IMG/VR virus record: IMGVR_UViG_2534681978_000010
Strand: one strand, 5' to 3'
DNA length: 8,200 bases
Source: a virus
Lineage: Duplodnaviria; Heunggongvirae; Uroviricota; Caudoviricetes
Program-made: the position numbers and the translations under genes
In this document: positions 715-8,199 of the stretch, piece by piece
How positions within the stretch are numbered: the stretch's first letter is position 1
Layout: each line of letters opens with the position of its first letter
Notes under the pieces: model-generated
Told to the model about the DNA's origin: nothing
Databases searched by the model: none
Seen by the model: only the letters and a program-made list of their open reading frames with translations

Positions 715-745
715 GCCCCGCACTTCCGTACGGGGCCATTTCTGT
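715..745 (+). terminator. GC-rich hairpin followed by U-rich tract; candidate intrinsic terminator for plus-strand transcription
   Basis: Seen directly: GCCCCG (715-720) pairs with CGGGGC (731-736); two more pairs (722-723 with 728-729) form across one C/A mismatch around a TTCC loop. It is followed by CATTTCTGTTAATCC. On the minus strand the hairpin is followed by an A-rich rather than U-rich tract, so it is not a classic terminator for the giant gene; it may stabilise that gene's 3' end. Confidence 0.35.
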
Positions 746-6700: not shown

Positions 6701-8199
6701 CGAACCATTTCACCCTCGAGTGTTTCCCCCTGGCGACCAGCGGCGTTTTCCGGTGCCGGAGCTTGTCCTTTCTGGAAACTCTGGCCCTTAACCTCACCGG
6801 TTGTGGTAAAACGACCACCACGTCCGGCCTGATTTTCATCCGGCGTACGCGCCACTTCTCCCGGTAACGGATATCCCTGTCCGGGATGAATATCGCCGGG
6901 AGCGGGCAGGCGCGGACGCTCAGTTAACTCCTGTGCTGTCGGACCGGCATCACCTTCAGCCATCTGTGAACGTACAAGCTCCTCCGCCGTCGGCGCGTTG
7001 CCACGGGCAAGGCGGGCCTGTACCTCCGTATCATCCCCCGTGAAACCACGGAATCGCGGGTCACGCATGAACGCGGGCTGCTCCATCGGGTCAGCATCAG
7101 CAATACGCTCTCTGTCAGCCAGGGTGTTAATGGTTTCCGTTGCCACATCTTCAGAGAACGCAGGATTATCCATTTCAACGGCATACTGATTCTCGCCTTT
7201 CTTCACTACGGACGGTTTCAGGCCGGTGGCGCCGGCATTACGGAAAACATCACTCCCCATGGCGCTTTTCTCATCCGTGAAATAACGGTTGTCCGGGCGC
7301 ACCTTCTCAATGCGTTCCGCTGGTCTGGACGCACCATTCCCGTTAATTTCAATGCGGACTTCATTCGGGTCCCGGAACCGCACCGTCGGGTAAATGCTCC
7401 CGTTACCATCCTCCGCATTTTCAGGCTGTGACTGTGCTTCCGGCGTCACTTCCTGTTGTGGGCGAATGACTTCTCGTATTGCCTGAAACTGTTGTTCTTC
7501 AGTCTCGGTGCGCCCCTCTTTCTGGCTGAGTCTGCGGTATTCCTCAAGCAGTTCAGAACGCGGCTTCGCCTTCAGCTCATTCATCACAGCCTGTCGCTTC
7601 GTCTGTTCGTCCAGTTCATTCAACAACTGGCTGGCAGCTTCCCGGCGATGAGCTGCGGATGCGTCACCCTCTGTTGCCATATCCGCATCAGCATACTGCT
7701 CCAGAAGCTGCTCGCGATTCATGCCCTGCATGGATTCACGCTGCTGCGCCACCGGATCAACAGATTCTGGTTGCGGGGCTGCGTCGTCCTGCTGCACGGT
7801 TTCAGCATCACGCATGGCGGTTTCTTCTGCGGCCTGACGTCTGCCACGATATCCGGCAACCGCACCGAATGGAGCCCCCATCGCAGCACCAAGGGCAGCA
7901 CCTTCGATCGTTGCGTCAGCCACGCCCTCCCATGGCGATACATCCATTCCGGCGGTCTCACGCAATGCCGTGTTTTCCTGATAGCGTGAATAGCCGCCCT
8001 GCGCCGCATTAATCGCCCCCTGTGCAGTGGCATTTCTGACAATGCCGCTTTTAACGGTCTTCGCTGTGCCTCGTGTCACCAGATTAAACAGTTGTGCGTC
8101 ACCCAGTTTTGCCGCCATGGCATTCACAGCCAGCAATTCAGGATCGGTTGCCAGCTGCGCGCGCACCTCATCGGCAACACGCTCTTTTGCCAGATCCAT
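745..8199 (-). CDS. Giant multi-domain protein (at least 2484 aa), cysteine-free, with two zincin-like HExxH motifs; candidate translocated polyvalent protein of a phage or conjugative element. 5' end at the window edge, possibly incomplete
   Basis: A 7.45-kb stop-free frame is overwhelming evidence of coding. Stop TAA is at 745-747 on the minus strand (C-terminus ...KKVGVD). The first ATG sits at 8199-8197, one nucleotide from the window end, so an upstream extension cannot be excluded. Functional call is inferred from composition and motif architecture, not from a database search. Confidence 0.92.
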   Translation of the reverse strand: MDLAKERVADEVRAQLATDPELLAVNAMAAKLGDAQLFNLVTRGTAKTVKSGIVRNATAQGAINAAQGGYSRYQENTALRETAGMDVSPWEGVADATIEGAALGAAMGAPFGAVAGYRGRRQAAEETAMRDAETVQQDDAAPQPESVDPVAQQRESMQGMNREQLLEQYADADMATEGDASAAHRREAASQLLNELDEQTKRQAVMNELKAKPRSELLEEYRRLSQKEGRTETEEQQFQAIREVIRPQQEVTPEAQSQPENAEDGNGSIYPTVRFRDPNEVRIEINGNGASRPAERIEKVRPDNRYFTDEKSAMGSDVFRNAGATGLKPSVVKKGENQYAVEMDNPAFSEDVATETINTLADRERIADADPMEQPAFMRDPRFRGFTGDDTEVQARLARGNAPTAEELVRSQMAEGDAGPTAQELTERPRLPAPGDIHPGQGYPLPGEVARTPDENQAGRGGRFTTTGEVKGQSFQKGQAPAPENAAGRQGETLEGEMVRRGLPSPDAQNATAPVREGLPAPDITHNVRMPQPDQLPRTVRNSLPELAQQAEVRRQAGGNRDIPQPETIAPESETTVSTDREATVRGGEVRGKKIEDFGEEIKGAAKHRYAQLAETLGKTLEDRDYATQPLSKLFPKPDYAKLASEGADADTLAMIALYRSDIPAKTKHNTAGWGESVKKVRHSVSEMLNGTVSAKRLAEWMEGRMPSRYADTWQLLRTLPPSQMDKASAYRVVSGVYQAAGGKRYDPPQKLYSLRNKDNKGTNLFFSESRDELLTKAKVWFAELEEKSQAKGDEKTAPSPDDKIRFDVYRNTRSGDIFIAYGKNKMRVRGGFKSASDARKYIDSHRDELVRHVKEMREISREEQRNATNRDRTGPERRKGDVSPEQFSDAFGFRGVQFGNYVEGPRRQADLNRAYDSLHDLAEVLNVPTKALSLNGRLGLAFGARGKGKAAAHYEPGEVAINLTKGNGPGALAHEWFHSLDNYFGRYDVSNDGKITSGGDFMTEAQRVRRIFKDGRYVDAEYPVRQEVYDAFKGVIQAIKNSDMPRRSVLLDEVRSKPYWSTDVEMAARAFERYVQDKARMAGVENDYLVNIRKAPEHNTDNTWAYPTNAELDGGIREAFDHLFRTLKTRETDKGVAFYSRKGVTRTPEGNLISDVNRSAEAKGSPVPQVEAVARGVMSGIKDSDLKVRVVKSQKEAEALAGELFDGYGRVHAFYRPDKREIVLVADNIPDGRTVREKLRHEIIHHAMEHVVTPAEYQTIIKTVLKTRDSDNVTIREAWRKVDASYGKESPEVQAGEFLAHMAEKQPNKFVAAWERVVALVKGVLRRTGLLKPTELNDIRLVRETIRTLGQRVREGYTPREDGAGASSQYSRSGKRDPFKVPEGEGERYRDDLARMMKSLRSTDLTVNIGRTPPVLRHLGAPDLPLVISRDTVRKATNGVKHVVPMDVIERLPELMHDPDAIYRSATERNAVVMLLDAVDKNGDPVVSAVHMKAVRSRLEINKVASVYGTENGKKLKSMEMTGLTLYRREKLSRDNLLHRGLQLPKGEHSYRGSVDKILYPEDIRKGPYYSRTSSLTPEETIASRFVRQMQDKFQVLKAVQENIRKTGGKVDDSNNAYMAEELFHGKAENDLNVMKERYVQPLAKLLADYKIAQADLDEYLYARHAPERNVHIAKINPKMPDGGSGMTNAEAAEIMQRVRNSGKQAQYDRLAGIIDDMLARRRELIREAGLEENGVVDAWQNAYRYYVPLKGQDVDGVVSLPRTGKGFTIGGRESRQAMGRASRAQSPSTQAIQDLSESLIRHRKNEVGNAFLKLVQDNPDKDYWQVFTDDRPDTMRVIAERKDQETGETIREVVERPVPMAMMADRYFTTKKDGKTYYIKLHDPRLMRAMKSMGPETSNAFVRTLGKVNRFLATVNTSYNPEFLVSNFIRDVQTAVMNLKAEQGRSDGKLKGLDNLSALAVVKDSRSAMSAVYASLRGKTLTGKGAQWQKVWKEFVEDGGKTGWFNMGDLEGQQKEMDRLVSLAKGGWKGQSIGAWHSFLNLVEDANGAVENALRLSAYKHARDAGLSRQQAASLAKNMTVNFNRRGEQGALMNSLYMFANASIQGTANLVRTLGHLNGDGPLLERLRWKNLNVPQKIVLAAVGAGYLLGSLNRSVAGEDDDGVNWYDKVPSHVKERNLVIMKSVFGGKAGEYWSIPLPYGYNVFFLLGHTAEGVAAGDLTASRAAGNVVGGVLGAFSPIGSETSETLSGALLKNAAPTILRPFANLSMNENFMGAQIYQENMPFGTPKPDSQLGRRSTPEAYKAFAFWLNAFSGGSQYRSGAVDITPESLKFWVDYISGGTGRFISKTTDAAVKSLNGIDIPEQQVPFLGKISGEVMPYVDQQKMYDRMTEVAQYHAELKSLTGAERTAFIDENNGKLLMNGLMQDTRKRLKDLRKQRDAIYADSSLSLAQQSAMVKSVERDMKVAVDRFNREYNKKVGVD
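1465..1797 (-). other. C-terminal hydrophobic/glycine-zipper segments (residues about 2135-2245: IVLAAVGAGYLLGSL; FFLLGHTAEGVAAG; AAGNVVGGVLGAFSPIG)
   Basis: Seen in the translation: two to three apolar stretches with G/A-x-x-x-G/A spacing, the only strongly hydrophobic segments in the C-terminal third. Confidence 0.5.
4420..4617 (-). other. Predicted zincin-like module 2 (residues about 1195-1260; HExxH = HEIIH at nt 4462-4476), with DUF4157-like local pattern
   Basis: Seen: GRVHAFYRPDKREIVLVADNIPDGRTVREKLRHEIIHHAMEHV. The pattern A-F-[TY] ... I-V-[FL] ... G-R ... L-x-H-E-[LI]-x-H-[VH] resembles what I recall of DUF4157-type zincin domains found at the N-termini of polymorphic toxins and eCIS effectors. 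Extra His/Glu after the motif (HHAMEH) could supply the third metal ligand. Confidence 0.45.
4810..5562 (-). other. Predicted zincin-like metallopeptidase module 1 (residues about 880-1130; HExxH = HEWFH at nt 5263-5277)
   Basis: Seen: ...AAHYEPGEVAINLTKGNGPGALAHEWFHSLDNYFGRYD. A beta-strand-like segment immediately followed by an HExxH helix is the layout of minimal zincins and of the MPTase domains described in polyvalent proteins. Domain limits are approximate. Confidence 0.5.
6280..7842 (-). other. About 520-residue acidic, E/Q/A/P/T/R-rich low-complexity region (residues 120-640), predicted intrinsically disordered; includes a Pro-rich repeated motif
   Basis: Seen in the translation: long runs such as EETAMRDAETVQQDDAAPQPESVDPVAQQRE, TETEEQQFQAIREVIRPQQEVTPEAQSQPENAEDG and RRGLPSPD...REGLPAPD, with very few hydrophobic or aromatic residues. 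Confidence 0.6.
7849..7914 (-). other. N-terminal Gly/Ala-rich hydrophobic segment (glycine-zipper-like; residues 96-117, ATIEGAALGAAMGAPFGAVAGY)
   Basis: Seen in the translation: small-residue G/A-x-x-x-G/A periodicity in a 22-residue apolar stretch, typical of membrane-inserting or oligomerising helices. Confidence 0.5.

Follow-up and report, generated by a model that had tools for sequence, protein, structure and literature searches.

An 8,200-nucleotide stretch of the virus record IMGVR_UViG_2534681978_000010 (Caudoviricetes), called the window below, carries a single long open reading frame (ORF) at positions 745..8199 of the minus strand, with 2484 codons and a stop, in which neither TGT nor TGC occurs in frame (0 of each). 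It forms the C-terminal part of the gene for a giant virion protein, the true start of which lies 927 nucleotides (nt) past the end of the window. Cysteine is excluded from this protein by purifying selection. We consider it likely that the ORF encodes a giant polyvalent internal virion (ejection) protein of the short-tailed Shiga toxin (Stx) phages, purged of cysteine as a protection against disulfide trapping. These phages disseminate the Shiga toxin genes of enterohaemorrhagic Escherichia coli.

Absence of cysteine and its conservation

The DNA of the window aligns at 96-98% identity with the late region in 268 phage records, most of them from short-tailed Stx-converting phages (VT2-Sakai/Sp5, 933W-type, POCJ13, 75/02), and its protein corresponds to ORF80 of Sp5 (ECs1242; 933W-type) and to gp47 of phi24B. 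A recount upheld the preliminary description of a frame without any cysteine codon, with two corrections to the frame itself. The ORF lies on the minus strand, the plus-strand reading of 745..8199 being ruled out by 37 stops and 85 cysteines. Moreover, the ATG at 8197-8199 is an internal methionine and not the start of the gene, because the PHROG 616 profile matches the window protein from profile position 310 onward and the gene extends 927 nt (309 further codons) upstream in annotated relatives such as Shigella phage 75/02 (gp68, 2793 amino acids (aa)). The full-length protein of 2793 aa likewise contains 0 cysteines. In the GenBank annotation, orf71 of VT2-Sakai (AP000363) is 2806 aa long; its extra first 13 codons (MPGHCAGFFYGVC; L001 12839-12877, minus strand) hold its only two cysteines and precede the start MAYSEEQ used in RefSeq, which omits the extension. 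The GenBank start is probably wrong, and the cysteine-free rule argues for the shorter, 2793-aa start.

Base composition does not explain the lack of cysteine, as TGT and TGC triplets (TGY) are abundant in the other two minus-strand frames (91 and 149). Based on the other 78 annotated proteins of VT2-Sakai (215 cysteines in 14,713 residues, 1.46%), 36 cysteines are expected in the 2484 aa of the window part, with a binomial P(0) of 1.3e-16, and up to 41 in the full 2793 aa, while 0 are observed in both. A conservative null, restricted to the other structural proteins of VT2-Sakai (24 cysteines in 3472 aa, 0.69%), predicts 17-19 cysteines and still gives a P(0) of 3e-8 (window part) or 4e-9 (full length). 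The comparison with flanking genes and the proteome, which had been proposed as a check, agrees with these figures: the phage proteome stands at 1.46%, the four genes directly upstream are free of cysteine as well, and the portal, the capsid and other tail proteins contain it. The mutational supply of cysteine is ample, since 551 of 2485 codons (22%) are one substitution away from a cysteine codon, 157 of them being CGY arginine codons.

Among 120 cluster representatives with at least 96% identity (333,073 residues), 117 have no cysteine and three have one each. Each of these three cysteines is confined to one representative, and all are found at arginine or glycine positions. Across 107 full-length E. 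coli variants, cysteine was gained in 3 of 554 variant events. Arginine was replaced by cysteine twice and by histidine seven times, which is the expected direction, with counts too small to stand alone.

The preliminary description had also pointed to homologues as the test of its claim, and they bear it out. Homologues of the C-terminal module were retrieved from phage genomes by tblastn (22-40% identity), and the full-length giant proteins were then counted. None of the five contains cysteine, neither that of Vibrio phage D67 (3066 aa, 31 cysteines expected from the other genes of that phage), Ralstonia phage Eline (4514 aa, 31 expected), Burkholderia phage BcepMigl (4658 aa, 43 expected) and Pasteurella phage Pmp11 (2324 aa, 32 expected), nor that of Bacillus phage Palmer (1678 aa, 13 expected). 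Next, a divergent set was made of the 150 best representatives, mutually at most 50% identical, from a family of 8,539 clusters. This set contains 51 cysteines in 379,731 residues (0.013%), with none at all in 121 of the 150, whereas tryptophan, histidine, phenylalanine and tyrosine are present at 1-3.5%. Cysteine is likewise missing from each of the 29 central-module homologues and each of the 22 homologues of the second zincin-like module.

The exceptions follow a pattern. More than half of the cysteines in the divergent set (31 of 51) sit in inserted enzyme domains. Five relatives (P0223, P0226, P0238, P0266 and P0237) have a PC or CPC motif in an inserted C5-cytosine DNA methyltransferase domain (PF00145, above threshold). 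The cysteine of this motif is the obligate catalytic nucleophile of these enzymes. In the inserted methyltransferase domains this catalytic cysteine is kept and every other cysteine has apparently been stripped, a natural experiment on the strength of the constraint. Three relatives have a cluster of seven cysteines within an inserted GP88-family domain. In 18 of the 150 relatives (P0240, P0159, P0235 and 15 more), a single cysteine is found at residue 3-7, within the conserved N-terminal motif M-x-L-T-x-C-I-K-K-A-G-K-A..., and the protein is otherwise cysteine-free over 1,000-3,700 residues; such a conserved thiol suggests a specific role, for example as an anchor, nucleophile or processing site. 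The remaining exceptions are a few isolated single cysteines. In this family, cysteine is thus mostly limited to a few inserted or conserved positions, and the enzyme cannot do without at least one of these, the methyltransferase nucleophile. This pattern is as expected under strong purifying selection, and not under history or composition.

Virion association and competing explanations

According to a study on Sp5 (PMC5155283), ORF80 encodes 'an unusually large protein of 2,793 amino-acid residues' and is essential. In the ORF80 deletion mutant, the heads are filled with DNA and the tail-fibre antibody is not bound (PMC5155283), so the protein is needed for tail completion. In phi24B, gp47 was abundant in purified virions by mass spectrometry and absent from the cryo-electron microscopy (cryo-EM) reconstruction, which led its authors to propose an ejection protein enclosed in the capsid (bioRxiv 10.64898/2026.04.10.717836); in that work about 52,000 full and 36,000 empty particles were separated. 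Neither the Sp5 paper nor the phi24B preprint mentions the absence of cysteine. Virion association and essentiality are taken from this literature, while the lack of cysteine, its significance and conservation, the domain content and the virion context come from the present analysis.

In the mechanism proposed here, the giant protein would be synthesised late and enclosed in the capsid. During infection, it would be driven out through the narrow channel of portal and tail, before or together with the DNA, in an extended and largely unfolded state, and it would refold after exit in the cell envelope or the cytoplasm. The C-terminal LPD38 module, with its one or two hydrophobic helices, would then probably become part of an envelope-spanning conduit. 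The two zincin-like modules would probably cleave either the polyprotein itself, into its working parts, or proteins of the host, and LPD5 and MuF_C/PBECR would probably serve as effectors. Exposed thiols might form disulfides that jam the ejection or trap a misfolded state, first during concentrated, oxidizing storage and then during unfolded passage through an oxidizing compartment, which in Gram-negative hosts would be the DsbA-containing periplasm. Given the tail-assembly phenotype of the ORF80 deletion, the data suggest that part of the giant protein is also located in the portal-tail lumen and needed there for tail completion, like a tape-measure protein or the T7 core.

A first alternative is that extracellular virion proteins are generically poor in cysteine, in which case the giant protein would be a very large structural component with nothing specific to ejection. 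Indeed, orf58 (645 aa), orf62 (422 aa) and orf52 (335 aa) of Sakai have 0 cysteines, as do the T7 and P22 scaffolds and the P22 needle, while the tail fibre of Vibrio phage D67 has 1 in 1553 residues; the defect of the Sp5 deletion mutant also concerns tail assembly. However, folded external virion proteins do carry cysteines, with 6 in the portal, 2 in the major capsid protein, 4-5 each in orf56, orf57 and orf59, 8 in the P22 tailspike and 5 in T7 gp12. Even at the structural rate of 0.69%, the 17-19 cysteines expected would be missing with P = 3e-8, and the 0.013% over 380,000 family residues is far under the content of the external structural proteins counted. In addition, the protein is missing from the phi24B cryo-EM map despite its abundance. 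We regard generic poverty as unlikely.

The protein could also be an assembly factor or tape-measure-like scaffold of the short tail, which may stay in the tail or portal lumen and be cysteine-free for reasons of folding or assembly. The DNA-full heads without tail-fibre signal in the deletion mutant fit this idea, and both an 83-aa neighbour and the giant protein have Gly-zipper-like stretches that are also present in tape-measure PHROGs. Yet tape-measure proteins are themselves ejected, so that this explanation overlaps with an ejection protein rather than replacing it. Enzyme-like modules (two intact zincins, LPD5 and PBECR) make little sense in a pure scaffold. The relatives also swap effector modules in a mosaic manner, DNA methylase and RadC inserts included, as delivered polyvalent proteins typically do (PMC5512222). 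A role purely in assembly is considered rather improbable.

That the lack of cysteine is a by-product of disordered or low-complexity sequence, poor in cysteine, tryptophan and aromatics, seems very improbable. The first ~740 residues of the window protein are rich in A/E/R/Q/P and without a domain match, and tryptophan (0.9%) and histidine (1.5%) are also somewhat low, but structure prediction gives folded models for the central 440 aa and the C-terminal 949 aa, both with 0 cysteines, and in the family the 0.013% of cysteine stands against 1-3.5% for W, H, F and Y. Chance or mutational or codon bias, which has in its favour only that cysteine is a rare amino acid, is practically eliminated by P~1e-16, by the 91 and 149 TGY triplets out of frame, by the 551 codons one step from cysteine and by the persistence of the trait at ~22% identity and across host phyla.

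The case for a cysteine-purged ejection protein is weakened by several points. Exit from the capsid and entry into the cell go beyond the published virion association, and the tail defect of the ORF80 deletion mutant is unlike that of classical P22 ejection-protein mutants, so a structural role could be involved. The conduit function of the C-terminal module is put forward by analogy, with no sequence or fold similarity to solved ejectosome components, and the window protein has only one strongly hydrophobic helix. Virions often contain cysteine-free proteins of 400-650 aa, tail fibres and scaffolds among them, so ejected proteins are not alone in bearing the signature. Up to seven cysteines are found in some members of the family, so cysteine is not absolutely incompatible with function. 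Finally, the Bacillus-phage homologue is cysteine-free without a DsbA periplasm. This argues against a strictly periplasm-specific cause of the exclusion, since a DsbA-containing Gram-negative periplasm is evidently not required.

Domain composition and neighbouring genes

Pfam scans were run on the whole window protein and on six sub-segments up to E=1; residue numbers below follow the window protein, and all features of the giant gene lie on the minus strand. The N-terminal part (residues 1-740; 5980..8199) is hydrophilic and A/E/R/Q/P-rich. No Pfam domain exceeds the threshold in it, and residues 97-124 form only a weak Gly-zipper-like stretch; judging from its composition, this part is probably extended or disordered. 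It is followed by LPD5 (residues 742-891; 5527..5976; 157 bits), which resembles an HPF-like alpha/beta fold in the model and was predicted to be enzymatic by Iyer et al. (PMC5512222). LPD5, LPD1, MuF_C and LPD38 all score above the Pfam gathering scores.

Based on conservation and the predicted fold, residues 892-1131 (4807..5526) form a first zincin-like metallopeptidase module, which includes the Pfam LPD1 match (residues 1052-1131, 84 bits). Its invariant residues are H954, E956, H975-E976-x-x-H979, D982, E1066 and E1073, with the HExxH motif starting at residue 975 (HEWFH; 5263..5277), and the model shows a zincin fold with an intact active site. Both zincin modules fall below the sensitivity of Pfam, and neither HExxH motif (975 and 1242) lies within a Pfam match. 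A second zincin-like module (residues ~1140-1400; 4000..4782), with the motif LRHEIIHH and its HEIIH at residue 1242 (4462..4476), is covered by no Pfam model. In 22 homologues the LRHE..(x)H motif is conserved, mostly with HExxxH spacing, E1298 is invariant and E1305 nearly so. The preliminary description had excluded any cysteine-dependent catalytic domain or cysteine-based zinc finger, which holds trivially for a protein with 0 cysteines; zinc enzymes are compatible with it, and the two zincin modules are of the His/Glu type.

MuF_C is found at residues 1441-1530 (3610..3879; 64 bits). In the phi24B preprint (bioRxiv 10.64898/2026.04.10.717836), it was called a metallopeptidase that degrades peptidoglycan, but according to Pfam and Iyer et al. 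it is a PBECR domain, which is RNase-like, and the peptidase motifs lie 200-460 residues upstream of it. The nearest folds of the zincins are protein-directed peptidases and not peptidoglycan peptidases, and the idea of cell wall degradation is therefore not favoured. Only the MuF_C (PBECR) part is present, with no Phage_Mu_F match in the Pfam scans, whereas the MuF/SPP1 gp7 head-morphogenesis family pairs MuF_C with an N-terminal, portal-associated MuF domain.

The family is defined by a C-terminal module of 949 aa (748..3594), which is always C-terminal in the more than 8,500 cluster representatives. It is mostly alpha-helical and predicted to be folded (predicted local distance difference test (pLDDT) 79.5, predicted template modelling score (pTM) 0.76). 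Taken together with the central 440 aa (pLDDT ~80 and pTM 0.68-0.76 for the two, 0 cysteines in both), this means that the lack of cysteine is not due to disorder. Within the C-terminal module, LPD38 occupies residues 2167-2372 (1084..1701; 157 bits). Just before it, residues 2136-2154 (VPQKIVLAAVGAGYLLGSL; 1738..1794) form the sole strongly hydrophobic helix, a candidate membrane-inserting segment; by the Kyte-Doolittle hydropathy scale alone, this is the one segment above 1.3, next to two weaker ones.

Peptidoglycan hydrolase, AAA+ ATPase, helicase, methylase and metallopeptidase (MPTase) models found no match in the Pfam scans of the six sub-segments, nor was a lytic transglycosylase domain found in the window protein. 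The AAA+ ATPase (COG1483) suggested by Mondal et al. (2016) was not reproduced, as the Pfam scans returned no AAA or P-loop family. When the whole protein and two module profiles were compared by sequence with the chains of the Protein Data Bank, nothing was found at E<0.1, and the fold of the C-terminal module has no relative among solved structures.

The four genes directly upstream in the late transcription unit, orf67 to orf70 of AP000363 (218, 148, 83 and 421 aa), all have 0 cysteines and form with the giant gene a contiguous cysteine-free block of 3663 aa. The borders of this block have a normal cysteine content, with lom/bor-type morons upstream and early-region genes downstream. In VT2-Sakai, 75/02, Vibrio D67, Eline, BcepMigl and Palmer, the late operon ends with the giant gene. 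A gene of 420-540 aa just upstream of it is cysteine-free in all five distant phages, with homology across the five phage groups detected only within two pairs (Sakai-Vibrio and Eline-Bcep) and a positional correspondence otherwise. In JC1, the giant homologue gp69 and its neighbour gp68, the counterpart of the upstream gene, were reported in CsCl-purified virions.

The 83-aa product of orf69 (L001 14184-14435, minus strand) is annotated as 'bacteriocin' and has a Gly-zipper-like segment and 0 cysteines. Apparently, this is the protein recovered from phi24B virions as a 'homolog of a bacteriocin' and classed there as a contaminant (bioRxiv 10.64898/2026.04.10.717836), and it may be a small ejection protein instead.

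A more speculative proposal, which we hold to be possible but short of probable, is that orf67-70 and the giant gene, with their 3663 cysteine-free residues, make up a five-gene ejection module. The 950-aa LPD38 module would then represent a type of DNA-ejection conduit that had gone unrecognised although it is very widespread, and that is joined to peptidases acting on their own chain and to exchangeable effectors; it would be the single-polypeptide counterpart of the T7 gp14/15/16 ejectosome. If true, ejected proteins could be predicted simply, and independently of homology, from long cysteine-free runs in late operons.

Downstream of the giant gene, a 63-aa ORF at 430-621 of the window (minus strand) matches PHROG 1925 (unknown function) and has one C-terminal cysteine. 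It contains two weak terminator-like hairpins of the minus strand (555-603). On the other strand (plus), positions 23-343 hold the 3' part of a DUF551-family gene.

Significance and comparison with known systems

The absence of cysteine as a hallmark of ejected proteins was already known, and an ejection role of the giant protein had been proposed before. According to Lokareddy et al. (2024; PMC11445570), homologues of the N4-like virion RNA polymerase (vRNAP) contain 0.00075% cysteine compared to 0.865% in the proteome, which was explained by the periplasm and the Dsb system; the same source dates the observation for N4 vRNAP to 2002. The principle itself, stated in 2002 for N4 vRNAP and in 2024 for Schitoviridae, is unchanged and will not surprise a specialist. 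What is new is that the hallmark holds for the giant protein, for its small neighbours and for the large LPD38 family, with exceptions that prove the rule. A literature search, incomplete in its coverage, found no prior report of the cysteine-free property in the LPD38 family beyond N4/DEV. In the 2026 cryo-EM preprint on phi24B, the organisation and role of the giant protein were posed as a question. The cysteine signature gives independent support for its assignment as an ejection protein. It also carries this assignment over to the four small neighbours and to the giants labelled 'DarB-like' in phages of Burkholderia, Ralstonia, Vibrio, Pasteurella and Bacillus. In practice, it yields a cheap annotation heuristic and testable predictions.

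By domain content, the giant protein is a member of the phage-type polyvalent proteins. It resembles their LPD38 class as described by Iyer, Burroughs, Anand, de Souza and Aravind (2017; PMC5512222) in its combination of LPD5, LPD1, MuF_C and LPD38, unrelated globular domains within one giant polypeptide, and in its late-gene context, and nothing in the comparison speaks against membership. In that paper the word 'cysteine' occurs 0 times. The first zincin module shows exactly the features of the phage-type MPTase variant, with a glutamate downstream of HExxH, a histidine ending strand 2 and an aspartate at HExxH+3, and the second module is of the HExxxH type. The giants of Bcep22-like and Ralstonia phages (4,500-4,660 aa) have the C-terminal ~800 aa in common at 27% identity and are likewise virion-associated and cysteine-free. 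The 'DarB-like' profile PHROG 10089 matches residues 2045-2372, in the LPD38 region, and this is the sole link to DarB. Identity with P1 DarB was rejected, as its N6-adenine methyltransferase and DExH helicase domains are absent from the Pfam scans; because these domains were not found, the label cannot be transferred as a function.

TraI of the F plasmid (L011 30674-35944, 1756 aa) was included as a control meant to separate unfolding from oxidizing exposure. With 0 cysteines, compared to 11 in TraD and 8 in TraC, which are not translocated, TraI is also cysteine-free and does not discriminate between the two. It is like the giant protein in being long, free of cysteine and translocated unfolded, in its case into the recipient by a type IV secretion system, and it differs in that it is unrelated in sequence and uses another machine. 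Exclusion of cysteine may be general for long translocated proteins, TraI being a single example.

The vRNAPs of N4 (gp50) and DEV (gp71) are closer in kind. Like these, the protein is a giant and probably capsid-packaged podovirus protein (~3,400-3,500 aa in the N4 type) with a zincin-like MPTase, encoded beside smaller cysteine-free proteins, which in Schitoviridae are the ejection proteins. Unlike these, no RNA polymerase domain was found by the Pfam scans, no relationship of the C-terminal module to them could be detected in sequence or in fold, and the virion belongs to the Sepvirinae, with a GP4-like tail.

The ejection proteins of T7 and P22 are known to unfold, exit via the tail and build a conduit across the envelope (PMC8954989, PMC8402733). 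Those of T7, gp14, gp15 and gp16 (196, 747 and 1318 aa), contain 1, 0 and 0 cysteines (1 in 2261 aa), and those of P22, gp7, gp20 and gp16 (229, 471 and 609 aa), contain none (0 in 1309 aa). For comparison, the portals, tail proteins and tailspike of both phages contain 0.5-1.5% cysteine, and the replication enzymes 1.3-2.7%. The claim of the preliminary description that avoidance of cysteine is typical of ejected and translocated proteins is thereby supported, with 0 cysteines in T7 gp15 and gp16, in P22 gp7, gp20 and gp16 and in F TraI and with a published precedent (PMC11445570). Sequence or fold homology to T7 gp14/15/16, P22 gp7/16/20 or N4 gp51/52 was not detected. T7 and P22 each have three ejection proteins (200-1300 aa), while in the Stx phages a single polypeptide of 2793 aa with enzyme-like modules makes up most of the mass. 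Like the T7 and P22 proteins, it is an essential, cysteine-free virion protein of a short-tailed phage, encoded in the late operon. Without being homologous to them, the giant protein is functionally like the ejection proteins of T7, P22 and N4, and by analogy with these it would be translocated into the host.

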